Positions 6,096 to 47,260 of a DNA stretch of 64,000 bases are shown here, piece after piece. The stretch comes from an uncultured bacterium (GTDB lineage: Bacteria > Omnitrophota > Gorgyraeia > Zapsychrales > Aceulaceae): NCBI GenBank assembly GCA_937930175.1, contig CALGLP010000022.1:161360-225359 (forward strand), written 5' to 3'. The translations under genes and the position numbers were made by a program. Position 1 is the stretch's first letter. Every line of letters begins with the position of its first letter. The notes beneath the pieces are model-generated. The model was given only the letters and a program-made list of their open reading frames with translations. It made no database searches and was not told the DNA's origin.

Positions 6096-6791
6096 ATGAT
6101 GGTCTTAAAGAAATATTCGTCAAATATCGTGAAGTTGTTTATTATTGGGTTTTTGATTGCTGGTGTCTTTTACCTGGGATATCAGGTATATCATAAATAT
6201 GTTTATGAAAAGAAAATTTTAGAAGAGATGGTTAAAAGGCTTCAGGCGGATTCGCGCATTGCCGAAGTCATTGTGACAGATGTCGGTGTTGACGTGGCAA
6301 CTCAGCAGCAGATAACAACGATTAAATTTCTGGAATTTAATAGCCTTGGCCAACCTTTAGCGCCAAAATATTTTACCTTCATGGGTAATATTATTCAGTT
6401 TCAGTCCTTGGTTGTGCGCTTTGTGGATAAGTTTGTTACTTCCGGAGACGCTTTAAAGGGGAAAAGCATTGCACTGTTTTGGAAGGCTTTTGTCCTAGAT
6501 GGTGCACGTACGCAAGAGTATGTGATTACGCCTGTTCGCGAGATTCCCGCAGGGTACAAGATTGAAGGTGTGTCGAGCTCTTTTGAAGAAGAGATTTGGA
6601 GAGAATTTTGGGACTATGCGCTTTATAATAAAAAAGCATCAGTTAAGGGTATTAAGAATGCTCAAATTGAAGCGCCAGGAATGAAGTTTATTCCGGGTAT
6701 TATTTATACCCTCCGGATTGAGCATGATGGTGGGATCCGCATTGACACTGCTCCCATCCCAATGATTTTAAAAGGAGAGATTCTTCGTTAA
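6096..6791 (+). CDS. Hypothetical membrane-anchored protein
   Basis: Single N-terminal TM helix. No recognisable motifs. Confidence 0.4.
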   Translation: MMVLKKYSSNIVKLFIIGFLIAGVFYLGYQVYHKYVYEKKILEEMVKRLQADSRIAEVIVTDVGVDVATQQQITTIKFLEFNSLGQPLAPKYFTFMGNIIQFQSLVVRFVDKFVTSGDALKGKSIALFWKAFVLDGARTQEYVITPVREIPAGYKIEGVSSSFEEEIWREFWDYALYNKKASVKGIKNAQIEAPGMKFIPGIIYTLRIEHDGGIRIDTAPIPMILKGEILR

Positions 6792-6806
6792 GGCTTTTGA
6801 GGTTAG

Positions 6807-7727
6807 TTAGTTTTGATGATTAACCCAGAAGATAATCTTGTTTTTGAGATCTTGGTAGGTCTTTTGGTCAAATAATTTTGTAGCTAAATAAGTGTTTTCA
6901 AAGAAATCAACATTGTCTTCAGTTTTTCGAATGATCAAAACATATCGTCCAGAGTATTTAAATCGTCGGGTTGCTGTAATGGCAATCGCAAAATTTTTAT
7001 GATCAAACTTTCCATCTAGAGTTTCAACAGAAAGAAGAAGGATCCTGTCATTTTTAATCAGAATTGGTGTTCCACCGTCAATGGGGAGTGTGATGTCCTT
7101 GTCTTGATTTTCAATAAATTCGAGATTATCGCGGTTGCCATAAAAGAGATAATTATCAAAACTGTCGAGTGGTCCATACCGGGCAAAGGATGGATCCAGC
7201 AAGAATGTCTTAGTCGGATCAGTTTTGTCGTAGATCATCAGGATTATGTGGCTTGATTGAGGTTGGAGAAAGAATCCGGATTCGGCAACCTGGTGGAATT
7301 TAATGGCATATTGTGGTTCCAGCAGCGGCGCAATTTTTGTGTAGGTGTAGGATGCGAGCTCGCCGCAAAGGCCGTAGCGACCTTCTTCTAGGATGAGATT
7401 GCCATTTTTATCAAAGCGATGAATGTTGGTTAATTGCCATGTTTGAGTTGTAAAGTTAATCAGAAGATTGACCTCGTTGCGTAGTAGTGTCGGTAGACCT
7501 GAGTATTGCAGAGGGCTGATGATAGACATGATTTGACTGTATTGAGGAATACCATTGGTGGGTGGAGAAATGGTTTCTGTGACAGAGTCTTCTTGTTGCT
7601 TTCCGATTTGGTGAGCGAAAAAGAAAGCTGCTCCAATCGATAGGATGCTTATTATGGCAAGCAAAAGCGCAAGGATTTGATAGCTGCGAAGTTTATCTTT
7701 GAATAGGGAATGAAGGAAATGATGCAT
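6807..7727 (-). CDS. Hypothetical membrane-anchored protein
   Basis: N-terminal TM helix. A conserved-looking GLCGELAS segment gives a weak hint of a transglutaminase/papain-like Cys fold. Not assignable. Confidence 0.4.
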   Translation of the reverse strand: MHHFLHSLFKDKLRSYQILALLLAIISILSIGAAFFFAHQIGKQQEDSVTETISPPTNGIPQYSQIMSIISPLQYSGLPTLLRNEVNLLINFTTQTWQLTNIHRFDKNGNLILEEGRYGLCGELASYTYTKIAPLLEPQYAIKFHQVAESGFFLQPQSSHIILMIYDKTDPTKTFLLDPSFARYGPLDSFDNYLFYGNRDNLEFIENQDKDITLPIDGGTPILIKNDRILLLSVETLDGKFDHKNFAIAITATRRFKYSGRYVLIIRKTEDNVDFFENTYLATKLFDQKTYQDLKNKIIFWVNHQN

Positions 7728-12165: not shown

Positions 12166-12687
12166 ATGATCTTATGGCAATTGTTTCTCGTTTTTTTTCG
12201 GATTGGGCTTTTTGCTTTTGGCGGTGCGTATTCTTTTCTGCCGCTTATTCAAAAAGATGTTGTTGAGCGTTATGCCTGGCTTACCAAGGAAGAATTCTTA
12301 GAAATTTTAGGTATTGTTAAGATATTTCCTGGCGCGATTTCGGTCAAGTTTGCAACGTATGTTGGGCAGAAAATGGCTGGAACTTGGGGGGCGATTGTTG
12401 CCAACCTTGCGAATCTTTTAGCTCCGGTTGTTCTGATTCTAATTGCGACCTATTTTTATAATACTTACAAAGAAGTGCCTCAGCTGAAGAATGCCTTTGC
12501 GATGATTCAGCTAGCTGTTTTCGCCATGATTGTTGCTGTTGCGTTTCAAACAGTTAAAATGACAGATTTGATTGTGTTGAAGAATTTTTTTGTGGTTGTG
12601 GTGGCATTTGTTTTGTTTTTTGTTTTTCATGTTCATCCTGCTTTTATTCTGCTTGGGGCAGGGCTAATCGGGGCATTGCTTGGATGA
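12166..12687 (+). CDS. chrA: Chromate transporter ChrA family (short single-domain form)
   Basis: FGGAYSFLPLIQ and FPGAISVKFATYVG match the CHR domain. Only one half-size unit is present. Confidence 0.65.
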   Translation: MILWQLFLVFFRIGLFAFGGAYSFLPLIQKDVVERYAWLTKEEFLEILGIVKIFPGAISVKFATYVGQKMAGTWGAIVANLANLLAPVVLILIATYFYNTYKEVPQLKNAFAMIQLAVFAMIVAVAFQTVKMTDLIVLKNFFVVVVAFVLFFVFHVHPAFILLGAGLIGALLG

Positions 12688-12769
12688 GAGCAGGGAGATA
12701 AAGGTTTTTCGCGGAACAAGAAAATCGTGCTATGATATAGTAAATTATTTAAACCACAAGGAGGATAAA

Positions 12770-13162
12770 ATGAGCTGTGAACGTTTTGAAATGTATCAGT
12801 GTTCTCAAGATCCAAAATGTCAGTGTTTGGCCCAGATGGTTCGTGGTTGTGGGGAAGAATGCGTAATGACTTGCTGTGGGGCTCCGATGACAAAGGTGCA
12901 ATTTAAAACGGCTGATCAGGGAAAAGAAAAACATGTTCCGGTTATTGAAAAGATCGCTGGGGGTGTCAAGGTTAAGATTGGTTCTGTTCCTCACCCTATG
13001 GAGCCAGATCACTATATTGAATTTATTGAACTTCGTACAGAAAATGAAGTTTATCGTAAGTATTTAAGCCCAGGCATGGCGCCTGAAGCGGTTTTTCAGA
13101 TTAACGCTGGCAACGTCAAGGCTGTTGAGTTTTGTAATAAGCATGGCCTTTGGATTTCTTAA
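12770..13162 (+). CDS. dfx: Desulfoferrodoxin (superoxide reductase, 2Fe-SOR)
   Basis: N-terminal Cys-rich desulforedoxin-like domain. C-terminal neelaredoxin domain with the EKHVPVIE motif. RBS AGGAGG. Confidence 0.85.
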   Translation: MSCERFEMYQCSQDPKCQCLAQMVRGCGEECVMTCCGAPMTKVQFKTADQGKEKHVPVIEKIAGGVKVKIGSVPHPMEPDHYIEFIELRTENEVYRKYLSPGMAPEAVFQINAGNVKAVEFCNKHGLWIS

Positions 13163-13195: not shown

Positions 13196-13609
13196 ATGAA
13201 TACTTGGATAAAAAGAATTTCTGTCACACATGCTGGGTTAGGAGTTATGCTCTTGCGGCTTTTTCTTGGGTGGGTTTTTCTTAGTTCTGGCTGTGGAAAG
13301 CTTTTTGGCTGGTTTGACGGTTCTGGTATTCAAGGATTTTCTGGATTTTTAGAGAAAATTGGCATTGGCTTTCCTGTTTTTAATGCTTATTTAGTTGGCT
13401 GGGTTGAGCTTATTTGCGGTGTCTTGCTTTTGCTTGGTCTTTGGACGCGCCTTGCCGCGATCTTTATTATCATTGTCATGGTGGTTGCGGTTCTGAAGGT
13501 GCATCCTAACAATTTTAATTATCCTATAACTGTTCTTTTGAGTGCCCTTGCCCTGATTGAGGTTGGAAGCGGAGCCTTTTCGATCGATAGGCTTTTAGCC
13601 AGAAAATAA
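13196..13609 (+). CDS. DoxX family membrane protein
   Basis: RLFLGWVFLSSG..L and GWVELICGVLLLLGLWTRLAA are typical DoxX motifs. Four TM helices. Confidence 0.75.
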   Translation: MNTWIKRISVTHAGLGVMLLRLFLGWVFLSSGCGKLFGWFDGSGIQGFSGFLEKIGIGFPVFNAYLVGWVELICGVLLLLGLWTRLAAIFIIIVMVVAVLKVHPNNFNYPITVLLSALALIEVGSGAFSIDRLLARK

Positions 13610-13630: not shown

Positions 13631-14905
13631 GTGCAATCTTTAGTAAAAAATAGAATTTTCATTCTTGGCGGAGGATTTGGCGGCCTTTATACAGCTATGA
13701 GTCTTGAAAAGGCCTTACGCCAAGATCCTTCCATTGACATAACCCTTATTAGCCAAGACAATTTCTTTCTTTTTACGCCGATGTTGCATGAAGTTGTTTC
13801 GAGTAGTCAAGGTGGTATTGCTATTGCCAATCCTATTCGCAAGCTTTTAAGGCATGCCACTTTTATCCAATCCCGCGTCGATAAGGTTGACCTTCAGAAG
13901 AAAATTATTGTAACAACGAATTTCCAGGGAAGTAAAAAAGAGTATAGTTATGATCATGTTGTTTTTGCTTTAGGGCTTGCGCCGAACTTTTTTAATATTC
14001 CTGGATTATCCCAGAAAGCTTTAACAATGAAGTCTTTGCAGGACGGGATTCGTCTTCGTAATCGTCTTATTGCGTGTCTTGAAAAAGCCAACGGCGAGCC
14101 AGATCCCGAAGCTAAGAAAAGGCTTTTGACGTTTTTAGTCGCTGGCGGAGGATTTACAGGCGTTGAGATTTTGGGTGCCATGGATGATTTCTTAAGAGAA
14201 GCAATAAGGTACTATCCTTATGTTTCCAGCGAGGACTTAAGGATGATTTTAGTTCATCTTGGCGACGCTCTTGTGCCGGAGATGCCAAAGAATCTTGGGG
14301 CTTACGTGCAGGAGAAGTTTGAGCAACGTCATGTTAAAGTAAAGCTTAAATGTGGCGTTGTTGCTGTTGAAGGTGATAAAATTATGTTGAGCTCTGGGGA
14401 ACCAATTGTGGCAGAAACGCTTGTCTGGACAGCTGGGAACACAACGCAGCGAGTCGTTGAAACGCTTGCGCTTGAAAGAAAGCAGGGGCGTATCGTGGTC
14501 AATGAATATTTGGAGGTTCCTCAGTATTCTGGCGCTTGGGCTTTAGGAGATTGCGCGTATATTCTTGATCCTAAGGGACAAGGGGCTTATCCGCCAACTG
14601 CGCAGCATGCGATTCGTGAGGCAAAAGCCTTGGCTAAGAACATTGTTTTTGTGATCAAGGGGAAGTCTAAAATAGCTTTTTCGTTCAATGCCCTAGGGTC
14701 GCTTGCTAATTTTGGGCATCAGACTGGAGTTGCCGTGATCTTTGGTTTTAAGATGAAAGGGTTTCTTGCATGGTTGTTGTGGCGCGACGTGTATCTTTGG
14801 AAGCTTCCACGACTTGAAAAGAAAATACGTGTATGGTTGAATTGGATTATGTTATTATTTTTTAAAAGAGATACGATTCAATTTCTCAAGGAAGAGAATT
14901 CATGA
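13631..14905 (+). CDS. ndh: Type II NADH dehydrogenase (NDH-2) / FAD-dependent pyridine nucleotide-disulfide oxidoreductase
   Basis: Two dinucleotide-binding motifs (ILGGGFGGLY, VAGGGFTGVE). C-terminal membrane-anchoring helices. GTG start. Confidence 0.7.
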   Translation: MQSLVKNRIFILGGGFGGLYTAMSLEKALRQDPSIDITLISQDNFFLFTPMLHEVVSSSQGGIAIANPIRKLLRHATFIQSRVDKVDLQKKIIVTTNFQGSKKEYSYDHVVFALGLAPNFFNIPGLSQKALTMKSLQDGIRLRNRLIACLEKANGEPDPEAKKRLLTFLVAGGGFTGVEILGAMDDFLREAIRYYPYVSSEDLRMILVHLGDALVPEMPKNLGAYVQEKFEQRHVKVKLKCGVVAVEGDKIMLSSGEPIVAETLVWTAGNTTQRVVETLALERKQGRIVVNEYLEVPQYSGAWALGDCAYILDPKGQGAYPPTAQHAIREAKALAKNIVFVIKGKSKIAFSFNALGSLANFGHQTGVAVIFGFKMKGFLAWLLWRDVYLWKLPRLEKKIRVWLNWIMLLFFKRDTIQFLKEENS

Positions 14906-15798
14906 AGAAAATATGGATTTTTAGCATGGCGTTTCTTTTGATAGCCAATTGCCTTGCTTCTTCGTTTGACTGGAAAGCTGCTCATGATAAAGCTGACACC
15001 TTATCTCTTGCGCAGGCCATCAGCGAAAACGAGTCGGGTGAGCAATCTGCAGAAACTCTTTATACTTTGGGTCTTGTTTATCTTAATGAATACAAGCATC
15101 TTCACGCCAAAGATGTTTTTCTAAAGATCTTAGCTCTTGATCCTAATTTTTCTGAAGCCAAATGGGGCATAGCGGAATCCTTAAGACGAGAACATCGCTA
15201 CACGGAAAGCGTTCCAATGCTTGAGGCAATTATGAAGGCAAACCCTGATTTTTCTCCGGCCTATATCACGCTTGCGTATATTAAATATGTTCAAGGAAAG
15301 TTTAATGAAAGTGTTGTTTTGGCAGGCAAGGTTATCAATCATTCACAGAAGAATGTCGATAGGGCCAATTTTTTGCGTGCCCATGGGCTTTACGCCGGGG
15401 CGAAGGGCATGATCGCCCATTATGGAGGCCCATTATCGAAAGCGATTAATGGTTCAAGCGTTCTAAAGCATCTTAATATCATTCAGAAATTAGCTCCAAA
15501 TTCGGCGGTGGTTAATTTCGGCTTGGGGAGTTATTACATGCTAACTCCTGCTGCTTTTGGTCGGAATTTAGATAAGGCGAAAGAATATTTGGAGAAAACA
15601 ATTGCCGAGGACCCGCTTTTTCCGGATCCTTATGTACGCCTGGCGCAGATTTATAAGAAAACAGGTGATGAACAGAAGTATGAAGAAAATATGGTAAAGG
15701 CTTTAGCTCTTGATCCACAAAATGAGCTTGCTTTGGATATCAAGACCGGAGCCTGTAAATTTATTTGCTTAAGCCCAAAGGAAAAAGGTGATGAATAG
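14902..15798 (+). CDS. Secreted TPR-repeat protein
   Basis: Signal peptide and repeated 34-aa TPR-like units. Confidence 0.5.
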   Translation: MKKIWIFSMAFLLIANCLASSFDWKAAHDKADTLSLAQAISENESGEQSAETLYTLGLVYLNEYKHLHAKDVFLKILALDPNFSEAKWGIAESLRREHRYTESVPMLEAIMKANPDFSPAYITLAYIKYVQGKFNESVVLAGKVINHSQKNVDRANFLRAHGLYAGAKGMIAHYGGPLSKAINGSSVLKHLNIIQKLAPNSAVVNFGLGSYYMLTPAAFGRNLDKAKEYLEKTIAEDPLFPDPYVRLAQIYKKTGDEQKYEENMVKALALDPQNELALDIKTGACKFICLSPKEKGDE

Positions 15799-17245
15799 AG
15801 CAAGAAAGAAGATTGCAGTGGTTGGTGCTGGGGTTGGTGGACTTGCGACGGCGCTACGTTTGGCTCATCGGGGATGTGATGTTACCGTGTTTGAAAAACT
15901 TTCGCAGTGCGGCGGACGTAATCATATGCTTATTGACAAGAGTTTTAAATTTGATATGGGCCCATCTTTTGTTTTGATGCCAGATTTTTTTAAGGAGGTT
16001 TTTAGGGATTGCGGAAAACAAATTGAAGATTATTTGAATCTTAAGGTTTTGGATATCAATTATAAGATCTTTTATCCCGATCATCGCGTTTTGACTGTTT
16101 TTAAAGATTGCGATAAGACAAAAGAAGAAATTGAGAGCTTTGAAAAAGGAAGCGCGGCGGGTTTTGATAAGTTTATGAAGAAAACAGAAGGGTTTTTTAG
16201 TACCGTGGCGCCGCTTCTTTATCGCTGTTTCACGGTTAAGGATATTGCAAACCCTAAAAATTGGAGCTTACTTTTAACGTTGGAACCCTGGGCAACCTAT
16301 TGGGATCTTGCCAGAAGATTTTTTAAGACTGAAGAGCTTGCTTATGCTTTTACTTTTGAGGCGATGTTTATGGGTGTGTCGCCGTTTGAAGCCCCGGGAT
16401 TTTACAGTGTGATCACCTATGCGGACCATGTTCAGAAAATTGCTCATCCCATGGGGGGGATGTATGAAATTCCAAAAGCTTTGGAGCGTTTCGCACGAGA
16501 AAAGGGTGCCAGGTTTGTTTATGATGCGGAAGTCAAAGCGATTCAGTCCCAAGGCTCTCAGGTTGCGATCGTTGTTGACGCAGAAGAACAGCTATTTGAT
16601 AAGGTTGTTGTAAATGCGGATTATTGTTATGCGCAAAGTGATTTGCTCAAGCGTCCTCTTGCGGATTATCGTTATTCGTGTTCAGTCTTTTTGCTTTATT
16701 TAGGTTTAAAGGGAAAACTGAAGGGTTTGGATCATCACAATCTTTTCTTTGCCAATGATCTAAGAAAGAATTTGCGTGAAATCTTTGAGGAGAATCAAAC
16801 GCCCCAAGACCCTTCTTTTTATGTGCATGTTCCGACGGTGACTGATCCTTCCCTTGCGCCTGAGGGTAAAGATATTGCCTACATCCTTATTCCTGTTTCT
16901 AATCTGAAGGGTCTGCAGGAGCCGTTTAGCTGTGTTGAAGAGTCTTTAAAGAAGAATGTCTTTGAGCGAATGAACGCGGTTACAGGGCAAAGAATTGAGG
17001 ATATGATCGAGGTTGCACATGCCTTTTACCCTGAGGATTTCATCACCCGATACAATCTAAAATATGCCGCGACCTTTGGGCTCGCGCATAATTTGATGCA
17101 AAGCGCATTCTTTAGGCCAGGCAATCAAGATGCAAAAGATAAAAATATTTTTTATGTGGGGGCTAGTACTCAGCCGGGCGGGGGATTGCCTGTTGTGATC
17201 GCGGGGTCCAAGATCGTTGCGGACATGATCACCTCTGAAAGATAA
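15788..17245 (+). CDS. Phytoene/diapophytoene desaturase family oxidoreductase (CrtI/CrtN/CrtD-like)
   Basis: N-terminal FAD motif VVGAGVGGLA. C-terminal YVGASTQPGGGLPVV signature of the CrtI family. Confidence 0.7.
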   Translation: MMNRARKKIAVVGAGVGGLATALRLAHRGCDVTVFEKLSQCGGRNHMLIDKSFKFDMGPSFVLMPDFFKEVFRDCGKQIEDYLNLKVLDINYKIFYPDHRVLTVFKDCDKTKEEIESFEKGSAAGFDKFMKKTEGFFSTVAPLLYRCFTVKDIANPKNWSLLLTLEPWATYWDLARRFFKTEELAYAFTFEAMFMGVSPFEAPGFYSVITYADHVQKIAHPMGGMYEIPKALERFAREKGARFVYDAEVKAIQSQGSQVAIVVDAEEQLFDKVVVNADYCYAQSDLLKRPLADYRYSCSVFLLYLGLKGKLKGLDHHNLFFANDLRKNLREIFEENQTPQDPSFYVHVPTVTDPSLAPEGKDIAYILIPVSNLKGLQEPFSCVEESLKKNVFERMNAVTGQRIEDMIEVAHAFYPEDFITRYNLKYAATFGLAHNLMQSAFFRPGNQDAKDKNIFYVGASTQPGGGLPVVIAGSKIVADMITSER

Positions 17246-18104
17246 AAGATTTTCTCGTAAATCGGTATAAAAGATAAAACAGCGCTGGTATTCTTTCGAT
17301 CATTGGCACAAAGGCACGTTGACGGTATACATCGAAATTGTTTTCTTCTATTTTTTTTAGGATTTTCGCATAAAATTCTAGGATAAGAAATGTTACTAAT
17401 TGACAGCGGGGGTTTTTGATCAGCTTGATGCCTTGGCTGGCTTTCAAGAAGTAATCACGCGCTCTTTTGATCTGAAAGCGCATAAAATCTTTGAAATTCT
17501 TATCAACGTTTTTATTTGCAATATCGTTTTCGTCAATTTGGCATTGGCTCATTTCATCTTGCGGCAGATAAATGCGTCCTCGTGCAAAATCTTCCTGAAT
17601 GTCTCTTAAGATGTTTGTTAATTGAAGCGCAAGGCCTAAATCAACAGCGCACTGTTCTGCCTGAGCATCGTTGCTCTCAAAGATTTTTAGCATCATGAGT
17701 CCAATGACGCCAGCCACACGGTAGGAATATTGATAAAGCTCTTCAAACGTTTCATAGCGATCTTTCGTTAAATCCATGGACATCCCCTTGAGGAGTTCGT
17801 CAAAGTATGCTTTCGGTATTTGGTATTTTGTGACAGTTTCCCGGAAGGCGAGCAGGAGTGGTTTTTCGATGGGGTGAGGGCCAAAGGCTTGGTTAATTTG
17901 TTCTTGAATGTTTTCAAGTTCTTGTTGTTTTTGATCAAGGTTTAAATGCATGCTGTCGACTGATTCGTCGCTCAAGCGACAGAGCGCGTAGATCGCGTAA
18001 GCCGCCAAGCGTTTTTCGCGAGGCAGGAAAAGAGATGTTATATAAAAGGTATGCGCGTTGCGTTTTGTGATGGCTTGCGCTTTTTTAAAGCCTTGGTTTA
18101 TCAT
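17229..18104 (-). CDS. Squalene/phytoene synthase family (CrtB/CrtM/HpnD-like)
   Basis: Isoprenoid synthase regions YAxCRxxDDxVD-like (YALCRLSDESVD) and YxxxVAGVIG are present. Confidence 0.75.
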   Translation of the reverse strand: MINQGFKKAQAITKRNAHTFYITSLFLPREKRLAAYAIYALCRLSDESVDSMHLNLDQKQQELENIQEQINQAFGPHPIEKPLLLAFRETVTKYQIPKAYFDELLKGMSMDLTKDRYETFEELYQYSYRVAGVIGLMMLKIFESNDAQAEQCAVDLGLALQLTNILRDIQEDFARGRIYLPQDEMSQCQIDENDIANKNVDKNFKDFMRFQIKRARDYFLKASQGIKLIKNPRCQLVTFLILEFYAKILKKIEENNFDVYRQRAFVPMIERIPALFYLLYRFTRKSFIFQR

Positions 18105-18150
18105 GGCTTCATTGTATCAAAAATGCGCTTAATCCCAAGTAAAAATTGCC

Positions 18151-18876
18151 TTGAAGCGATCTGTGATTACGGATAGAATAAAAATAACAACTATGGTTAA
18201 GGGAACGTATCTTTTTATCAATTTTGCGATTATTTTTGTTCCGCTTCTTCTTTCTTTTGAGAAAAGAGTTTTCTTTTTTCATAAGTGGTTGAGGGTTTTC
18301 TTTGCCATTGCGATCGTTGGAAGTGTTTATGTTTTTTGGGACGTCTTGGCAACGAACTTGGGGCATTGGTGGTTTAACCCGCGATATGTTTTAGGCTTTA
18401 AGATAGGAATCCTTCCCTTTGAAGAAATCCTCTTTTTTGTTACCGCGCCTTTTAGTTGTTTGTTTATTTATGAAGTGATCAGCTTTTTTCATCAGGACAA
18501 ACCATTTGTTTTTAACCGGCGTATCATGAATCTTTTGATCGTGGCGGTTTTGAGCGCTGGATTTTTGTGTCTTGGGCGGGATTATACAGCGTTGAGCTTT
18601 TGGATGCTGGGACTTTTTCTTTTTATTGGCATGACGTATTTTCGTGCGATGATTGAGATGCAAAATGTTTGGATTTATTTAGGTATTTGTTACCTTCCTT
18701 TTTCTATTTTTAATGGTATTTTGACGAGTCTTCCGATCGTGTCTTATCATCCACGCGCGATTTTGGGCTTGCGCGTTGGCACGATCCCTGTAGAAGATTT
18801 TTTTTATAACCTTGCGTACTTGGGATTTATATTGATTGTTTACAAGGCTATTTACTTTCGAGGGAAGGGTCGATAA
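18151..18876 (+). CDS. Lycopene cyclase domain protein (fused CrtYcd-type)
   Basis: Two repeats each carrying the PxEE/D motif (LPFEEILFF, IPVEDFFY) within multi-TM halves. Confidence 0.6.
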   Translation: MKRSVITDRIKITTMVKGTYLFINFAIIFVPLLLSFEKRVFFFHKWLRVFFAIAIVGSVYVFWDVLATNLGHWWFNPRYVLGFKIGILPFEEILFFVTAPFSCLFIYEVISFFHQDKPFVFNRRIMNLLIVAVLSAGFLCLGRDYTALSFWMLGLFLFIGMTYFRAMIEMQNVWIYLGICYLPFSIFNGILTSLPIVSYHPRAILGLRVGTIPVEDFFYNLAYLGFILIVYKAIYFRGKGR

Positions 18877-30119: not shown

Positions 30120-30149
30120 ATGAATTTTTGTTCTTTTAATAGTTTTAGG

Positions 30150-30375
30150 CGCTCAAAGAAAAGTTGAGCTTAAGAGGGAAATTCGGTGCAAGGCAATATG
30201 GCCTTTAGTCCGAAGCAGTCCCGCTACTGTAGTCTCGGCAGAAATTGTCGGGAGAGCCAGAATGCCTGCCTAAAACCGGTGTTGATATGCTGCGCGAAAC
30301 AGCATAAAAACAAAACGTTGTGGATTTACAGGGTATGCTCCCAACTGATTTAATCGGTTGGGAGTTTTTTTGTTT
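30150..30375 (+). ncRNA. Cobalamin (B12) riboswitch with terminator-type expression platform
   Basis: AGAGGGAA..GGTG, B12-box-like GTCCCGCTACTGTAG and GGGAGAGCCAGAATGCCTGCC all match conserved cobalamin-aptamer elements. Downstream hairpin CTCCCAAC...GTTGGGAG plus T7 at 30339-30372 lies before the btuB-like start. Confidence 0.75.
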
Positions 30376-30430
30376 CGATGTGAAATGCATCGAAATACTC
30401 CGAGCAACAGGCGAGGAGATAGGAGTAGGA

Positions 30431-32449
30431 ATGCACAAGGGAAAGATTTTTTGTTGGGTCGTTATTTTTCTGGGGTGCGTAAGCGTCGTGTTTGCCCAAA
30501 GTCATAGCCTAGATTTAGGGGAGATTAGTATCCTTGCTACACGCACAGGCATGATGGTTTCGGATGTGAGCCAAGGATTGACGGTCATTACACAAGAGGA
30601 TATCCAAAAATCAACGGCGACTTCTTTGGTCGATGTGATTGCTGCGCAAAGCGGTATTTTTGTCACAAATTATACAGGAAATCCTAAGGGAGTCAAGGTG
30701 GACGTCCGTGGGTTTGGCGAAGCAAGCGTCTCTAACCTTCTTGTCTTGGTGGATGGCCGGCGTACAAATCAAGCGGATCTCTCTGGCGTAGATTGGGGAC
30801 AGCTTCATTTAGGAAGTGTTGAGCGTATTGAAATCCTTAAAGGCCCATCAACTGTTCTTTACGGTGATAATGCCACCGCAGGCGTTATTAATATTGTGAC
30901 AAAAAAAGGATATCAATCCAAAGAAGCGCCGATCAAGGTAGGGGTTGAAGGAGGCAGCTTTAATTATCAGAAGGCCTTTGTTTCAGCGCAAGGAACGGCC
31001 AAGACCGTTGATTATTTTTTTGATGTTGCGCATCAATCAAAGGATGGTTATCGCGTTAACAGTGATTATTGGGCTAATGATTTCTTGGGAAATATTAAGG
31101 CAAGCCTTACGGATCAATCCTCTGTTGATTTCTCAAGTGGTTATCATCGTGACCATTATGGTATGCCAGGCGCTCTTTTTGATTCAGATATTCTTACCCT
31201 TGGGCGAAGGGGTAGCAAATACCCGGAAGATCAGGGATGGACCTCGGATGTTTTTGTCAACGTGGATCCCAAGATCCTTTTTTCGATCAATGATCAGGAG
31301 GCAGAGCTTTCTGGGTTTATATCGTATCGTAAACGATTTAATAAATCTTTAAGCGTGTCACCGTTTGGGCGTTATGAAACAGCCCATGAAATTAATTCAT
31401 TTGAATGGCGTCCTAAGCTTTCCCTGGAGGGTTCGATGGGAGAATGGTGGAAAAATAATTTGACCACGGGGGTCGATTATTTTTATGCCGATGATCATGT
31501 GCGAAGCGGGAACCAGGCCTTGGCTCAAGATGTTGTTAGTATTGTTAAACAGACCTTGGGGGTTTATGCGCTAGAGCGCATGGAATACAAGGAAAGGTTT
31601 CTGGTTAATATCGGGGGTCGTGCGATCTGGGCGGATTATAATTTCGATCAGACCCAGGTTGTTGCTAACACCGAAGAAAAAAAGATAGCTGATGGCGCCC
31701 TGAATGCCGGGGTAGGATATAAATATGGCAAGAATTCTCAAGTGTATTTTGACTATGCCCGCGCTTTTCGTTTGCCTGCCACCGATGAGTATTATCAAAA
31801 CAAATACGAGAGTCTTTGGGGGAGCGGCGGAGGGCTCAATACGGATCTTAAACATCAGGTTTCGCATAATTATGAACTGGGGATACGTGATTTTTCTTTG
31901 CCTTGGCTTAAAACTGATATGAATTTATTTTTGATGGATGTTAAAAATGAGATTTATTATGATCCGATCACGTATAAAAATGCAAATTATAGCCCAATGA
32001 CGCGTCATTGGGGTTTTGAGCTTGAAGGCAAGGCGCAAGTTTTTAGGAATACGCTTGAGCCTTTTATCAATTGGACATGGCAGGATGCTTTTTTTAAAGG
32101 GGGAGAATATGGCGGACACAAGGTTCCTTTTGTGCCGCAGAACAAGATTTCTTCGGGTGTGAGTGTTAACGTTTGCCGTGACCTAAAGACAACTTTTTCG
32201 GTGAATTATGTTGGAAAAAGTTTTGCCATCAGCGATCAAGCCAATGCCCAGGCGAAATTGAATTCTTACGTGACTTTTGATTTTAAGATAGACTACAGCT
32301 ATAAAGGGGCCAAGATGTGGTTTGGCGTTAAGAATATGTTTGATTGCCATTATGAGGCTTATGGTGTATATTCCTCAGGCGCTGATAAGGTAGGGTTTTA
32401 TCCTGCGGAAGTGCGTAGCTTTCTGGCGGGGATGAGCTATGAATTTTAG
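30431..32449 (+). CDS. btuB: TonB-dependent outer-membrane receptor, BtuB-like (cobalamin uptake inferred from riboswitch)
   Basis: Signal peptide and plug-domain motifs (LTVITQEDI, VDGRRTNQ). C-terminal beta-barrel ending in ...SYEF. Start set at ATG 30431 downstream of the riboswitch terminator. Confidence 0.8.
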   Translation: MHKGKIFCWVVIFLGCVSVVFAQSHSLDLGEISILATRTGMMVSDVSQGLTVITQEDIQKSTATSLVDVIAAQSGIFVTNYTGNPKGVKVDVRGFGEASVSNLLVLVDGRRTNQADLSGVDWGQLHLGSVERIEILKGPSTVLYGDNATAGVINIVTKKGYQSKEAPIKVGVEGGSFNYQKAFVSAQGTAKTVDYFFDVAHQSKDGYRVNSDYWANDFLGNIKASLTDQSSVDFSSGYHRDHYGMPGALFDSDILTLGRRGSKYPEDQGWTSDVFVNVDPKILFSINDQEAELSGFISYRKRFNKSLSVSPFGRYETAHEINSFEWRPKLSLEGSMGEWWKNNLTTGVDYFYADDHVRSGNQALAQDVVSIVKQTLGVYALERMEYKERFLVNIGGRAIWADYNFDQTQVVANTEEKKIADGALNAGVGYKYGKNSQVYFDYARAFRLPATDEYYQNKYESLWGSGGGLNTDLKHQVSHNYELGIRDFSLPWLKTDMNLFLMDVKNEIYYDPITYKNANYSPMTRHWGFELEGKAQVFRNTLEPFINWTWQDAFFKGGEYGGHKVPFVPQNKISSGVSVNVCRDLKTTFSVNYVGKSFAISDQANAQAKLNSYVTFDFKIDYSYKGAKMWFGVKNMFDCHYEAYGVYSSGADKVGFYPAEVRSFLAGMSYEF

Positions 32450-43565: not shown

Positions 43566-44129
43566 GTGAAGCAAATAAGCCAAGGTTTGTCAAAAGATCA
43601 GCCTGTTGGTTCCTGTTGTTGTGGTGAGTTCTCCGAACCAGAAATGTTAAAACGTCTCGATGAGATTATTGATACGTATAAGTCTGCGGATGGGGCCTTG
43701 ATCCCGATCTTGCAAACAGCTCAAAATTTATTTGGATATCTTCCGAAAAATATTTTGCGTCGGATTGGCGAACGATTGCGGATCCCGTATAGTCAAGTCG
43801 CTGGCGTTGTGTCGTTTTATTCTTTTTTCTCAACAAATCCTCGGGGTAAGAATTTAGTGCGTGTGTGTCTGGGAACCGCGTGCTATGTGCGTGGAGGCAA
43901 GGAGGTTTTGTCAACGATGCAAAAAACCCTTGGCATTAATGTTGGTGAAACAACAGCTGATAAAATGTTTTCGCTGGAGGTTGGGCGTTGTTTTGGTGCC
44001 TGTGGTTTGGCGCCTGTTGTGATGATCAACGAGGATGTTCATCAGCGGGTTAAGCCAGCAAAGATAAAAGAACTTCTAAGCTTTTATCGTGAGGCAAAGT
44101 CACAGACACAGGAGGCCGCCGCATGTTAA
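43566..44129 (+). CDS. hydC: NuoE-like 2Fe-2S subunit (HydC/HndA), second locus
   Basis: CLGTACYVRGG...CFGACGLAPV. Confidence 0.85.
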   Translation: MKQISQGLSKDQPVGSCCCGEFSEPEMLKRLDEIIDTYKSADGALIPILQTAQNLFGYLPKNILRRIGERLRIPYSQVAGVVSFYSFFSTNPRGKNLVRVCLGTACYVRGGKEVLSTMQKTLGINVGETTADKMFSLEVGRCFGACGLAPVVMINEDVHQRVKPAKIKELLSFYREAKSQTQEAAAC

Positions 44130-47100
44130 CTGACAAGATTTTATCCTTGAAAGATTTAAATCGTATCAAAGATGCTGCGGTTGCGGAAAAGGTCAAACGT
44201 AGTATTTATAAAGAGGTTTTGATCTGTGCTGGGGGAGGATGTATTGCTAGCGGTTCGCTGCAGATTAAGAAACGCTTGGAAGAGAAGATTGAGAAGAATG
44301 GAGTTGTCATCGATATTGTCGAGACAGGATGTTTAGGTCCTTGCGCTAAGGGGCCTGTGATGGTCGTAAACCCTGGGCATGTCTTTTATGAGAATGTTAC
44401 CCTTGATGATGTTGATCAAATTTTTGAGGAACATCTTTTTAAGGGGAAAATTGTTGAGCGGCTTTTGCATCGCAATTTTGAAACGAATAAACCTGTTTCT
44501 GACATCAAGGATGTTGATTTTTTTAAACGACAAACAAAAATTGTTTTGCGGAATTGCGGAACGATCGATCCTCAGAATATTGTTGATTATATTCGCGTGG
44601 ATGGATATCAGGCTTTGGCCAAGGCTTTGACGATGATGTCGGCTGATCAGATTATTGATGAGGTTAAAAAGTCAGGGCTCCGCGGCCGTGGAGGAGCAGG
44701 GTTTTCTACTGGAATGAAATGGGAATTTACACGTAAAGCGCCCGGCAGTGTTAAATACGCGATTTGCAACGCGGATGAAGGAGATCCTGGGGCTTTCATG
44801 AATCGAAGCGTTCTTGAGGGAGATCCTCATAGCGTGATCGAAGGGATGATGATCGCGGGTTTTGCGATTGGGGCTAAACAAGGATTTGTTTATGTGCGGG
44901 CGGAGTATCCGTTGGCGGTTTCACGATTGATGAAGGCGATCGAGCAGGCTCGGGCGTGTGGCCTTTTAGGAAAAAATATTCTTGGAACGGATTTTTCATT
45001 TGATTTGGATATCCGCATGGGTTCTGGGGCGTTTGTGTGCGGAGAAGAAACTGCTTTGATGGCATCATTGGAGGGAAAGCGTGGAGAGCCGCGTCCGCGT
45101 CCACCTTTTCCAGCTATTAAAGGACTTTGGGGTAAGCCGAGCTTGCTCAATAACGTTGAGACATATGTTAATGTGCCGATCATTCTCCTTAAAGGGGCCG
45201 ATTGGTTTGCGTCGATGGGAACGGAAAAAAGCAAGGGAACCAAGGTGTTTGCCTTAGCAGGGGCTGTGAACAATACAGGGCTTGTGGAGGTTCCTATTGG
45301 GACGTCGCTTGGGGAGTTAATTTATGATATTGGCGGTGGGATCAAAAATGGAAAAGAATTTAAGGCCGCTCAAATTGGAGGGCCCTCGGGAGGCTGTATC
45401 CCTAAGCAACATCTTAATGTTCCATTGGACTACGACACGCTTGTTGAGTTGGGCGCTATCATGGGATCAGGCGGGCTCATTGTGATGGATGATGATTCGT
45501 GTATTGTGGATGTGGCGCGTTTTTTTCTTGAATTTGTGCAAGATGAATCGTGCGGAAAATGTGTGCCGTGTCGTGTTGGGTCAAAACGGATGCTTGAGAT
45601 CCTTGAGAAAATTTGTAAAGGAGAAGGTAAACCAGAGCATATTAAGAAATTGCTTGAATTGGGTGAAGGAATAAAAGATGCTTCGCTTTGTGGGTTAGGC
45701 TATACCTCGGCTAATCCTGTGCGTTCAACCTTGCGTCATTTTCCTAAAGAATATGAAGAGCATATTCGTGATAAACATTGTGAGGCTGGGGTTTGCCCTG
45801 ATCTCGTGCGGGCCCCGTGCCAGAGCGCTTGCCCAGCCGGTGTTGACATTCCAGGTTTTATTGCTTTAACAGGGGAAGAACGCTACGCGGAAGCGCTCAA
45901 GCTTCATCGTGAACGCAATCCTTTTGCGGCTGTGTGCGCAAGAGTTTGTTTTCACACTTGCGAGGATAAATGTCGCCGCGCTACGCTCGATACATCGGTT
46001 TCGATTCGTGGGATCAAGCGTTTTATGGTGGACCAAGAGATTGTCGTCCAAATCCCGGAGATTCATCATAACGAGGCAAATGCTAAGAGAAAGATCGCGA
46101 TTGTTGGGGCGGGGCCTGCCGGACTGTCTTGTGCGTATTTTCTTGCGCGCTTAGGTTATCGTCCTACGGTTTTTGAGAAAGAAATGCGTCCTGGAGGGAT
46201 GCTTGTTCAAACTATTCCTGCGTATCGTTTGCCACGAGAAACCTTAGCCCGTGAAATCCGCATGATTGAGCAGCTTGGTGTTGAAATTGAAACCGGAAAG
46301 GCGCTGGGACGTGATTTTACGATTGATTCGTTAAAGAAGCATGGTTATGAGGCGATCTTTATTGCCGTAGGAGCTCCGGAAAGTGTGCGCCTTGGGCTTG
46401 ACGGCGAAGCCTCGGGAGGGGTTGTTGATGCCCTTGATTTTTTAAGAACTTATAATATCAGGGGATCTGTTCCTGTGGGTAAGAAAGTTGTTGTTGTAGG
46501 AGGTGGGAATGCCGCGATTGATGCCTCGCGGAGCGCGTTGCGTTTAGGGGCCCAAGAAGTGACGGTTGTTTATCGTCGTAGTCAAAATGAAATGCCAGCG
46601 TACGCGGAAGAAGTGGACGAGGCTTTGCATGAAGGTGTCAAGATCTTGCCTTTAACTCACCCTATCGAGATCAAAAAGGATAAGGATGGGAAAGTCTGTG
46701 GATTAAAGTGTATTCACATGAAGCTTGGGGATTTTGATCAGACAGGGCGACGACGCCCAACCGCGAACGCGGAAGATGTTTTCGATATGGAAACGGATCA
46801 AGTGATTGTTGCGATTGGACAGAAAATGGATGTTAAAAAGCTTCTTGATGGGGTAACGATGAAGCTTTCAGAGAGAAATTTTATTTATGCGGATCCGGTT
46901 TTAGGAAAAACTTCGGTGGAGGGAATTTTTGCCGGAGGGGATGCCACGACGGGTCCTTCCTCAGTTGTGATGGCGATTTCTTCAGGAGAACATGCGGCAG
47001 TTGGGATTGATCAATATTTGACCGGAGAAGAACATGCATTTTGGCGTGTGCAGAAAGCTGTTAAGGTTGATTTTGATCCCGATGCGGACCCTGCTCCATA

Positions 47101-47260
47101 TCCGCGAGATCCGTTGCGATTGATTGATGTGGCGCGTCGCAAACATAATTTTGATGAAGTTGAACAATCGTGGAATGAAGGCGTAGCTAGGCGGCAAGCC
47201 AAGCGATGTTTGCGCTGCGATTATGGAAAATGTTTAGATGAGAAAGGGGGTAAGGCGTAA
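44123..47260 (+). CDS. hydB: NuoF-like flavoprotein subunit (HydB) fused to a C-terminal GltD/NfnB-like NAD(P)H:FAD oxidoreductase domain
   Basis: The N-terminal 600 aa are collinear with the first-locus HydB (GRGGAGFSTG, ADEGDPGA, 4Fe-4S motifs). The C-terminal 440 aa carry the GltD-type Cys motifs, IVGAGPAGL and a second VVVGGGNAA dinucleotide fold. Confidence 0.85.
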   Translation: MLTDKILSLKDLNRIKDAAVAEKVKRSIYKEVLICAGGGCIASGSLQIKKRLEEKIEKNGVVIDIVETGCLGPCAKGPVMVVNPGHVFYENVTLDDVDQIFEEHLFKGKIVERLLHRNFETNKPVSDIKDVDFFKRQTKIVLRNCGTIDPQNIVDYIRVDGYQALAKALTMMSADQIIDEVKKSGLRGRGGAGFSTGMKWEFTRKAPGSVKYAICNADEGDPGAFMNRSVLEGDPHSVIEGMMIAGFAIGAKQGFVYVRAEYPLAVSRLMKAIEQARACGLLGKNILGTDFSFDLDIRMGSGAFVCGEETALMASLEGKRGEPRPRPPFPAIKGLWGKPSLLNNVETYVNVPIILLKGADWFASMGTEKSKGTKVFALAGAVNNTGLVEVPIGTSLGELIYDIGGGIKNGKEFKAAQIGGPSGGCIPKQHLNVPLDYDTLVELGAIMGSGGLIVMDDDSCIVDVARFFLEFVQDESCGKCVPCRVGSKRMLEILEKICKGEGKPEHIKKLLELGEGIKDASLCGLGYTSANPVRSTLRHFPKEYEEHIRDKHCEAGVCPDLVRAPCQSACPAGVDIPGFIALTGEERYAEALKLHRERNPFAAVCARVCFHTCEDKCRRATLDTSVSIRGIKRFMVDQEIVVQIPEIHHNEANAKRKIAIVGAGPAGLSCAYFLARLGYRPTVFEKEMRPGGMLVQTIPAYRLPRETLAREIRMIEQLGVEIETGKALGRDFTIDSLKKHGYEAIFIAVGAPESVRLGLDGEASGGVVDALDFLRTYNIRGSVPVGKKVVVVGGGNAAIDASRSALRLGAQEVTVVYRRSQNEMPAYAEEVDEALHEGVKILPLTHPIEIKKDKDGKVCGLKCIHMKLGDFDQTGRRRPTANAEDVFDMETDQVIVAIGQKMDVKKLLDGVTMKLSERNFIYADPVLGKTSVEGIFAGGDATTGPSSVVMAISSGEHAAVGIDQYLTGEEHAFWRVQKAVKVDFDPDADPAPYPRDPLRLIDVARRKHNFDEVEQSWNEGVARRQAKRCLRCDYGKCLDEKGGKA

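Follow-up and report, generated by a model that had tools for sequence, protein, structure and literature searches.

The 64-kb stretch of DNA analysed here (64,000 nucleotides of contig CALGLP010000022.1, from an uncultured bacterium of the phylum Omnitrophota; hereafter the window, whose coordinates are used throughout) carries three adjacent genes, at positions 15788-18876, for a carotene desaturase, a phytoene-type synthase and a fused lycopene cyclase. Together they probably form the core of a conserved gene cluster for a cyclic C40 carotene, the chain length and the product being predicted from sequence features. Each of the three enzymes belongs to a known family with the expected chemistry, and the trio alone is unsurprising; what is new is the separate clades of its synthase and desaturase, its strong conservation within the phylum and a set of accessory genes, encoding an exported tetratricopeptide repeat (TPR) protein ending in a CxFxC motif, an NDH-2-family flavoprotein, DoxX and a MenA-like protein, that is unreported for carotenoid clusters. 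A preliminary description of the window had pointed to such a trio, and all three open reading frames (ORFs) are indeed present, with their family matches confirmed by scans of the ORFs against Pfam and NCBIfam/TIGR models and the PDB. In the proposed pathway, the synthase would condense two molecules of geranylgeranyl diphosphate (GGPP) to phytoene, the CrtI-type FAD-dependent desaturase would add conjugated double bonds to give neurosporene or lycopene, and the membrane-embedded fused cyclase would close one or both ends by acid-base catalysis to yield gamma- and/or beta-carotene.

The desaturase, whose start is set at ATG 15791 by the gene caller, matches the curated crtI_fam model (TIGR02734) over residues 10-484 with 409 bits against a cutoff of 238, the Pfam Amino_oxidase model over residues 17-471 and the solved Pantoea CrtI structure 4DGK over its full length (211 bits). 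Residues G13, A14, G15 and G18 of its N-terminal FAD-binding GxGxxG motif are invariant in 15 homologues. Every equivalog subfamily model, at the level of CrtI, CrtN, CrtIb, CrtD or CrtP, remains below its own cutoff. The synthase gene is convergent with that of the desaturase, as noted earlier, the two 3′ ends sharing 17 nt, and its product retains intact both Asp-rich motifs, DESVD and DIQED, which align in register with the reference motifs. Among NCBIfam models, the synthase scores 236 bits with HpnD (cutoff 278.6), 233 with cyanobacterial CrtB and 178 with HpnC (cutoff 250), and it lies under all curated CrtB equivalog cutoffs (233 < 550, 166 < 500 and 142 < 480).

The third protein is a genuine member of the PF18916/TIGR03462 family, with two lycopene-cyclase domains scoring 104 bits against a cutoff of 39 and about seven hydrophobic segments in the hydropathy profile. 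Both motifs quoted in the preliminary description, LPFEE (P75/E77/E78) and IPVED (P199/E201/D202), are present, and their Pro, Glu and Glu/Asp positions are invariant in 18 homologues; no text on the cyclase motif was found in the Phycomyces carRA paper. The PF18916 family includes a monocyclase, bicyclases and C50 cyclases (PMC2889829). Omnitrophota relatives with a split cyclase encode it in two genes of 102 and 98 aa, and the tree node that is key to the origin of the fused form, by fusion of these split genes or by transfer from other phyla, has 7% support. The cyclase ORF mechanically begins at TTG 18151 (18151-18876, + strand), but the real start is probably ATG 18193, because the resulting 227-aa form is 100% identical to the entry P0001 in the database and positions 18151-18179 are taken up by a promoter-like site. 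This site (TTGAAG-17-TAGAAT, + strand) and a second one on the - strand at 18138-18111 (TTGGGA-16-TACAAT with a TG) come from a consensus scan that returned 26 sites against 16.4 +/- 4.6 in a shuffled background, a modest excess that makes the promoter calls weak. Scans of the window for tRNAs and Rfam families returned nothing bearing on the carotenoid cluster.

Table 1. Genes of the carotenoid cluster in the window and their neighbours
Feature	Position	Strand	Size and matches
crtI-family FAD-dependent carotene desaturase	15788-17245	+	485 aa; TIGR02734, Pfam Amino_oxidase
Phytoene-type head-to-head prenyl-diphosphate synthase (CrtB-like)	17229-18104	-	291 aa; PF00494 SQS_PSY 270 bits
Fused CrtYc-CrtYd-type lycopene cyclase (start probable)	18193-18876	+	227 aa; two PF18916/TIGR03462 domains
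Divergent intergenic region crtB/cyclase	18105-18192		promoter-like hexamers on both strands; consensus matches only
Exported TPR-solenoid protein	14902-15798	+	298 aa; signal-peptide-like N-terminus; C-terminal CKFIC
Type II NADH:quinone oxidoreductase (NDH-2) family flavoprotein	13631-14905	+	424 aa; Pyr_redox_2 142 bits, NDH2_C membrane anchor 35 bits
DoxX-family small membrane protein	13196-13609	+	137 aa, 4 hydrophobic segments; PF07681 88 bits
Desulfoferrodoxin (Dfx, superoxide reductase)	12680-13162	+	TIGR00320 132 bits (below cutoff 147), PF01880 74 bits

Conservation of the cluster extends well beyond this genome. In most of about 170 related loci (designated L) the three genes likewise lie side by side, far beyond chance, and a metagenome census with the Omnitrophota desaturase profile yielded 80 loci at 57-85% identity, of which the 23 with at least 7.5 kb downstream were used to count partner genes. 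The cyclase accompanies the desaturase in 23/23 of these loci, CrtB in 22/23, the exported TPR protein in 20/23, IspH and a short-chain prenyl synthase (PPS) in 19/23 each, the NDH-2-family flavoprotein in 16/23 and DoxX in 12/23, the last count being limited by flank length; a MenA-like UbiA gene occurs in 16 census loci. The dominant gene order, confirmed gene by gene in L153, is crtI, ispH(-), crtB(-), crtYc, crtYd, TPR, PPS(-), NDH-2-like and DoxX. The sub-lineage of the window instead shows the order Dfx, DoxX, NDH-2, TPR, crtI, crtB(-), fused cyclase, IlvD and PhoH2, with neither ispH nor PPS nearby. Linkage of the TPR, NDH-2-family and DoxX genes to the crt genes is kept at about 60% desaturase identity and across their move from downstream to upstream of crtI, and DoxX adjoins the NDH-2-family gene in both orders. 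This persistence through rearrangement and about 40% divergence is the main argument for a functional linkage. The remark in the preliminary description that NDH-2, DoxX and Dfx sit beside the trio is its most informative part and is borne out, the NDH-2-family and DoxX genes being conserved across Omnitrophota in two gene orders and Dfx in the sub-lineage only: Dfx adjoins the cluster in L008, L009 and L098-L102 but in only 2/23 census loci, and is context of the window's own sub-lineage, not a core member.

At the level of the protein, the desaturase has more than 120 homologues at 59-83% identity, every named one from Omnitrophota, and the family has a mean column identity of 72%, which together support selection and function. 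The CrtI/CrtB pair of the window type was found only in Omnitrophota. A scan for the cyclase family, with one genome per species, returned at least 578 relatives in Thermoplasmatota, Bathyarchaeota, Ignavibacteria, WOR-3, Spirochaetota, Binatia, Omnitrophota and others, nearly always beside CrtI and CrtB, the CrtI and CrtB of these other-phylum clusters being about 30% identical to those of the window. Carotenoid genes are widespread in uncultured lineages, including those typical of anoxic habitats, and are not unique to this genome. Omnitrophota themselves hold at least two evolutionarily distinct carotenoid clusters, because the CrtI and CrtB of two further Omnitrophota loci, L020 and L037, group with the Ignavibacteria/Bacteroidota type at 100% bootstrap.

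Several of the related clusters contain additional ORFs. In WOR-3, Ignavibacteria and Bacteroidota-type clusters, a conserved ORF of about 187 aa with no Pfam match lies between crtB and the cyclase gene (L005, 7441-8004), and a gap of about 600-800 nt between crtB and the cyclase gene is also seen in L010, L013, L016, L019 and others. A 134-aa protein without a family and a PNPOx-like flavoprotein are encoded between the NDH-2-like gene and DoxX in L178 (14286-15359), and a 529-aa protein without a family is encoded between a Pyr_redox_2 gene and crtI in L004 (2977-4566).

The preliminary description had left the choice between CrtB, CrtM and HpnD, and between CrtI, CrtN and HpnE, to phylogeny. 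Bootstrapped neighbour-joining trees were built with labelled references that all came from annotated plasmids: CrtB and CrtI of Pantoea, Paracoccus and Thermus, the bacterioruberin genes of Halarchaeum, CrtM/CrtN/CrtP of Staphylococcus xylosus, HpnC/HpnD/HpnE of Cupriavidus and the squalene-route C30 clusters of Palleronia and Azospirillum, a set without cyanobacterial, Chlorobi, heliobacterial or planctomycete sequences. The desaturase and four genome relatives form a clade of their own (100% bootstrap) within the CrtI/CrtN, or ‘first desaturase’, half of the tree, split from the CrtD/CrtP half at 96% and from HpnE at 100%. The synthase likewise falls in a separate Omnitrophota clade (95-100%), distinct from the labelled references for HpnC and HpnD, from the CrtB references of Proteobacteria, Thermus and haloarchaea and from the CrtB clades found with this cyclase family in other phyla. 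The trees thus separate the desaturase from HpnE and the synthase from the HpnC and HpnD references, but leave the CrtB/CrtM and CrtI/CrtN sister relations weak: the desaturase has a sister relation at 17-37% bootstrap, nearest CrtN, and the synthase is weakly drawn to CrtM at 38%.

As phylogeny cannot decide between C30 and C40, chain-length determinants were examined. The position corresponding to F26 of CrtM is occupied by Ser in all five synthases of the clade (the window and four relatives), and by S, A, S or T in the C40 CrtB references, F in CrtM and F or M in HpnD; the substitution F26A in CrtM is known to shift product size (PMC4510654). The prenyl synthase that is clustered with the crt genes in relatives carries F,M at positions -5/-4 before the DDxxD first aspartate-rich motif in 30/34 sequences, a short-chain signature that we take to be archaeal type-I GGPP-synthase-like. 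Together with the presence of a cyclase in 23/23 loci, these two features favour a C40 over a C30 product. Natural C30 carotenoids are not known to be cyclised, and CrtP, aldehyde dehydrogenase, glycosyltransferase and acyltransferase genes are absent from the cluster, unlike in labelled C30 clusters. Carotenoid cyclisation is a feature of C40/C50 pathways and has been linked to C40 (PMC9907078).

Three other fates for the products of the trio were weighed against a cyclic C40 carotene. The preliminary description had offered either a cyclic carotenoid or a modified squalene-derived lipid, of which the first is favoured, while the Ser residue, the single synthase, the constant cyclase and the GGPP-synthase-like gene of relatives speak against C30 or squalene chemistry. 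A C30 route, with a CrtM-like dehydrosqualene synthase acting on farnesyl diphosphate and a CrtN-like desaturase leading to diapocarotenoids or to modified squalene, draws on the CrtM- and CrtN-ward placements just given, on CrtM entries as the best solved-structure matches of the synthase (95-106 bits) and on a window without GGPP synthase. Those tree nodes are, however, unsupported, the PDB matches included no bona fide C40 CrtB and hence do not discriminate, and the Ser in place of Phe in every clade member, the missing C30 tailoring genes and a lycopene-cyclase-domain protein that would be unexpected for C30 make this route improbable. Synthesis of squalene by an HpnCDE-type pathway, with the synthase acting as HpnD or HpnC and the flavoprotein as HpnE to supply a squalene-derived lipid, was rejected as extremely improbable on model scores, gene count and the neighbour-joining tree. 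HpnD is the nominal top NCBIfam match of the synthase, but its score lies under the cutoff and level with that of cyanobacterial CrtB; the pathway requires two SQS_PSY enzymes, whereas the window and all relatives have a single SQS_PSY gene; the HpnE model (TIGR03467) matches the desaturase only over the N-terminal FAD-binding residues 9-59 (46.6 bits, cutoff 283, compared with 409 for crtI_fam), in agreement with the fully supported split in the tree; and no squalene-hopene cyclase lies nearby. The outcome that the preliminary description had named as fatal to a carotenoid cluster, an HpnCDE affinity with a cyclase-domain protein belonging to unrelated transporters, was therefore not what was found. 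Finally, CrtYcd-type cyclases feed retinal pathways in haloarchaea and acI Actinobacteria, and beta-carotene might serve as precursor of retinal for a rhodopsin. This is very improbable here, as no rhodopsin, heliorhodopsin or Blh/Brp gene occurs among the window ORFs scanned or, in annotated relatives, among the genes called up to 8-10 kb on either side, and carotene cleavage by Blh requires O2.

A C50 pathway through a UbiA-type elongase was also considered and rejected. The window has no UbiA gene, and the UbiA proteins of relatives are MenA-like, with MenA as best model (124 bits, below cutoff), and match the Halarchaeum lycopene-elongase-type gene with 29 bits; the elongase-type gene itself matches other models (NF009516, 397 bits). 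Since the UbiA proteins do not resemble a lycopene elongase, a C50 pathway is not indicated.

The accessory gene most tightly linked to the trio is that of the TPR protein, which went unmentioned in the preliminary description and lies between NDH-2 and the desaturase, sharing 4 nt with the end of the NDH-2 gene and 11 nt with the start of the desaturase gene. All 42 distinct homologues (42/42) share a signal-peptide-like N-terminus, a conserved DW(K)xLHExAD motif and an invariant C-terminal C-x-[FY]-x-C; the top 120 relatives are all at least 48% identical, and the named ones all belong to Omnitrophota. The AlphaFold (AF2) model is an all-helical TPR solenoid (pLDDT 93), and its top 50 Foldseek matches in the PDB are generic TPR solenoids only, TatT being absent. 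The TatT label carried by some PGAP homologue names was rejected, as PF16811 scores 23 bits, under the cutoff of 26.5, and the annotated loci contain no TRAP genes. The family, found beside crt genes, represents a new Omnitrophota-specific group of exported TPR proteins whose only known context is carotenoid genes; our guess is that, in the periplasm, the protein partners or carries the hydrophobic product.

The NDH-2-family protein of the window aligns over its full length with solved structures, namely 4NWZ (157 bits, residues 6-382), the S. aureus enzyme and yeast Ndi1 (residues 6-416), and its NDH2_C score exceeds the 27.7 cutoff. At least two GxGxxG motifs are present in 26/27 homologues, and a strict AxQxAxQ-type quinone motif is matched in only 2/27. 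The common type of NDH-2-like protein in the Omnitrophota clusters also matches 4NWZ best, and the two types are colinear and both closest to solved NDH-2 enzymes. Reduction of quinones is the chemistry of NDH-2, and NADH-dependent quinone reduction is predicted for the window protein. A link with prenyl-quinone metabolism is further suggested by a complete 1.82-Mb Omnitrophota genome, in which a UbiA-family gene lies between the prenyl synthase and the NDH-2-like gene, followed further on by a PNPOx-like flavoprotein and DoxX. Six Thermoplasmatota loci (L038, 6182-12151; L018, L030, L045, L057 and L066) offer an independent parallel, linking a predicted quinone reductase and UbiA to the crt core in the order UbiA(-), FSP1/AIFM2-like flavoprotein, CrtZ-like FA_hydroxylase, cyclase, CrtI and CrtB. 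The best solved relatives of their flavoprotein are FSP1/AIFM2 (116 bits), and FSP1 is an NAD(P)H:quinone reductase. No literature was found that joins DoxX and NDH-2 with a third search term, and a literature search on respiration in Omnitrophota yielded only mycobacterial papers that were off the subject.

These neighbours bear on how a CrtI-type desaturase might dispose of electrons without O2. Purified CrtI is inactive under N2, and quinones including menaquinone substitute for O2, which led the authors to ask if, in vivo, a redox chain is coupled to CrtI (PMC3382138). The earlier remark that desaturases of this family need an oxidant is true, but it creates no paradox in an anaerobe, given that replacement of O2 by quinones (PMC3382138). 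In the mechanism proposed here, the electrons of the desaturase would go to a membrane quinone or, where traces of O2 are available, to O2, the linked quinone genes would build or maintain that quinone pool, and the carotene would serve as a membrane-protective or stabilising lipid for an O2-sensitive fermenter meeting oxic interfaces. This electron route, the function of the carotene and whatever part the TPR protein and DoxX play are inferred, the coupling to quinones from gene linkage only. Coupling of the desaturase to quinones through NDH-2 and DoxX is plausible but put forward tentatively, and a fully self-contained O2-independent carotenoid system, comprising a dedicated prenyl-naphthoquinone made by the MenA-like enzyme and the prenyl synthase, the NDH-2-family flavoprotein and DoxX as electron-handling partners of the desaturase (or as an FSP1-like, quinol-regenerating antioxidant pair with the carotene) and a phylum-specific exported TPR/CxFxC protein handling the product in the periplasm, is unlikely. 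Regeneration of quinol in the manner of FSP1, beside an antioxidant carotene, fits the chemistry at least as well as a role as desaturase acceptor; it also fits the Dfx and Hcp neighbours and the reported occurrence of Dfx-bearing Omnitrophota at oxic-anoxic interfaces (PMC8542988).

Several points weigh against a quinone-coupled C40 pathway. NDH-2 reduces quinone and regenerates no oxidised acceptor, and the cluster includes no quinol oxidase; the NDH-2 of the window is only about 25% identical to the common cluster type, and the gene is absent from the L008/L100 sub-lineage. The 64-kb window contains no GGPP synthase, IspH or UbiA gene, so the supply of substrate is unseen. Deep placement of both enzymes has less than 40% bootstrap, with CrtM and CrtN as weak nearest neighbours. 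Quinone biosynthesis is reported as patchy in Omnitrophota (PMC10066038), and in strictly anoxic conditions carotenoid was not formed by an obligate anaerobe whose crtMN are functional (PMC11611032). Some of these observations would be explained if NDH-2, DoxX, TPR and Dfx belonged to an unrelated oxidative-stress or redox module that happens to lie next to a real carotenoid trio, its linkage meaningless. The confinement of Dfx and Hcp adjacency to the window sub-lineage (2/23 and 1/23 census loci), the absence and divergence of NDH-2 just described, a TPR fold without a functional clue and the lack of any obvious help from quinone reduction to a desaturase needing oxidised quinone all suit this reading. 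It is nevertheless doubtful, in view of the TPR (20/23), NDH-2-family (16/23) and DoxX linkages that survive both sequence divergence and rearrangement, the coding overlaps of NDH-2, TPR and crtI in the window, a TPR family known only from Omnitrophota beside crt genes and the Thermoplasmatota, which link an FSP1-like reductase and UbiA to the same core independently. The pathway might otherwise work only with O2, the carotene being made during O2 exposure from genes that are silent or useless in anoxia, and the quinone genes serving an FSP1-like role. The use of O2 as acceptor by CrtI and its inactivity under N2 without quinone, the Dfx and Hcp neighbours in the window lineage, the homology of the NDH-2 family with FSP1, to which the Thermoplasmatota partner is closest, and the occurrence of Dfx-bearing Omnitrophota at oxic-anoxic interfaces (PMC8542988) are all in keeping with it. 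This possibility, somewhat unlikely in our view, is faced with Omnitrophota terpene clusters, of unspecified type, reported as expressed in anoxic and euxinic Cariaco water, and is a variant of the quinone-coupled explanation more than its true opposite.

Among known systems, the CrtB-CrtI-CrtYcd clusters of Actinobacteria, Archaea and Bacteroidetes (Klassen 2010, PMC2889829) are the closest, with the same three families adjacent; the Ignavibacteria, WOR-3, Thermoplasmatota and Bathyarchaeota clusters found here are equivalents of that type. The cyclases have the same two-domain or two-gene build and PxE(E/D) motifs and are 37-46% identical, whereas synthase and desaturase of the Omnitrophota cluster share only about 30% identity with their counterparts and form separate clades. 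The Omnitrophota cluster also lacks CrtD, CruF, glycosyltransferase and acyltransferase genes and has instead TPR, NDH-2-family, DoxX, IspH, PPS and MenA-like genes. The thermozeaxanthin cluster on plasmid pTT27 of Thermus thermophilus, which leads to a bicyclic C40 carotene and comprises CrtB, a fused lycopene-cyclase-domain protein, a P450, a glycosyltransferase, an acyltransferase and CrtI, resembles that of the window in combining a fused two-domain PF18916 cyclase with CrtB and CrtI. Its cyclase is, however, very distant (37 bits, a domain-level likeness only), and Thermus is aerobic, its cluster including O2-dependent tailoring enzymes and no quinone genes.

Staphylococcal CrtM/CrtN and the squalene-route C30 pathways (HpnCDE with CrtN/CrtP; PMC9907078) draw on the same two superfamilies and are weak neighbours in the trees, but the Omnitrophota differ from them by the Ser at the F26 position, the cyclase, the single synthase and the absence of C30 tailoring genes. 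For the redox partners, the nearest models are the phytoene desaturase-plastoquinone-plastid terminal oxidase (PDS-PQ-PTOX) system of plants and cyanobacteria (PMC3382138) and animal FSP1/AIFM2, with a carotene desaturase that depends on a membrane quinone pool and an NAD(P)H:quinone reductase of the NDH-2 superfamily that acts on this pool; the quinol product of FSP1 is a lipid-radical trap. In contrast to PDS-PQ-PTOX, the Omnitrophota desaturase is of the CrtI type, its coupling is proposed from gene linkage and no quinol oxidase has been identified.

The Omnitrophota cluster is apparently undescribed in the searchable literature. The terms carotenoid, terpene, phytoene and lycopene do not occur in the two most comprehensive Omnitrophota genome surveys, and a Cariaco Basin study mentions only, in general terms, ‘terpene’ clusters that Omnitrophota express in anoxic water. 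An uncultured phylum of mostly anaerobic nanobacteria thus appears to keep a strongly conserved carotenoid pathway, and Omnitrophota may contribute carotenes to anoxic waters and sediments, from which carotane biomarkers could eventually derive. The in vivo electron acceptor of CrtI-type desaturases in the absence of O2 has been an open question since the biochemistry of CrtI in 2012, and quinone-reductase and prenyl-quinone genes beside a desaturase provide a concrete, testable gene set for O2-free electron disposal. If the O2-independent system is real, it would supply the first in vivo set of redox partners of a CrtI-type desaturase to be defined genetically, and would do so in obligately fermentative nanobacteria; if the accessory genes are unrelated, the finding reduces to an ordinary carotenoid cluster whose host is unusual.

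For every protein searched, the nearest relatives carry the label Candidatus Omnitrophota, the closest named genome being Candidatus Aceula meridiana. The window encodes two HydABC-type [FeFe]-hydrogenase clusters, the HydE/F/G maturases, Rex, an ADP-forming acetyl-CoA synthetase, Hcp and Dfx, a gene content that is typical of a fermentative anaerobe. The anaerobic setting proposed in the preliminary description from hydrogenases, Hcp and Dfx holds for this gene content. No terminal oxidase was found among the window ORFs scanned, but 64 kb are too little to establish that the anaerobiosis is strict. The second [FeFe]-hydrogenase cluster includes a 1045-aa NuoF/HydB-like fusion subunit (44123-47260, + strand) with 2Fe-2S thioredoxin-like, Complex1_51K, NADH_4Fe-4S, Fer4_20 and full Pyr_redox_2 (GltD/NfnB-like) domains, an architecture suggestive of a bifurcating hydrogenase of non-canonical type that has a second site for nucleotides.

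Elsewhere in the window, a cobalamin riboswitch (30130-30287, + strand; 57 bits, cutoff 31.5) lies directly upstream of the gene for a TonB-dependent receptor (30320-32449, + strand), which is presumably involved in the uptake of B12 or a corrinoid. The GC skew is positive in every 2-kb bin of positions 1-64000, the cumulative skew climbing monotonically to 5.7, and the + strand carries nearly all of the long ORFs, consistent with a segment of a single leading-strand replichore. Six consecutive or near-consecutive ORFs of 182-336 aa, at 60-2966 and 6096-7727, have no Pfam family at E<=1e-5. A second Pyr_redox_2 protein of the window, unrelated to NDH-2, is encoded at 56217-57926 (+ strand) and combines a CoA-disulfide-reductase-like Pyr_redox_2/Pyr_redox_dim module with a C-terminal rhodanese fusion.

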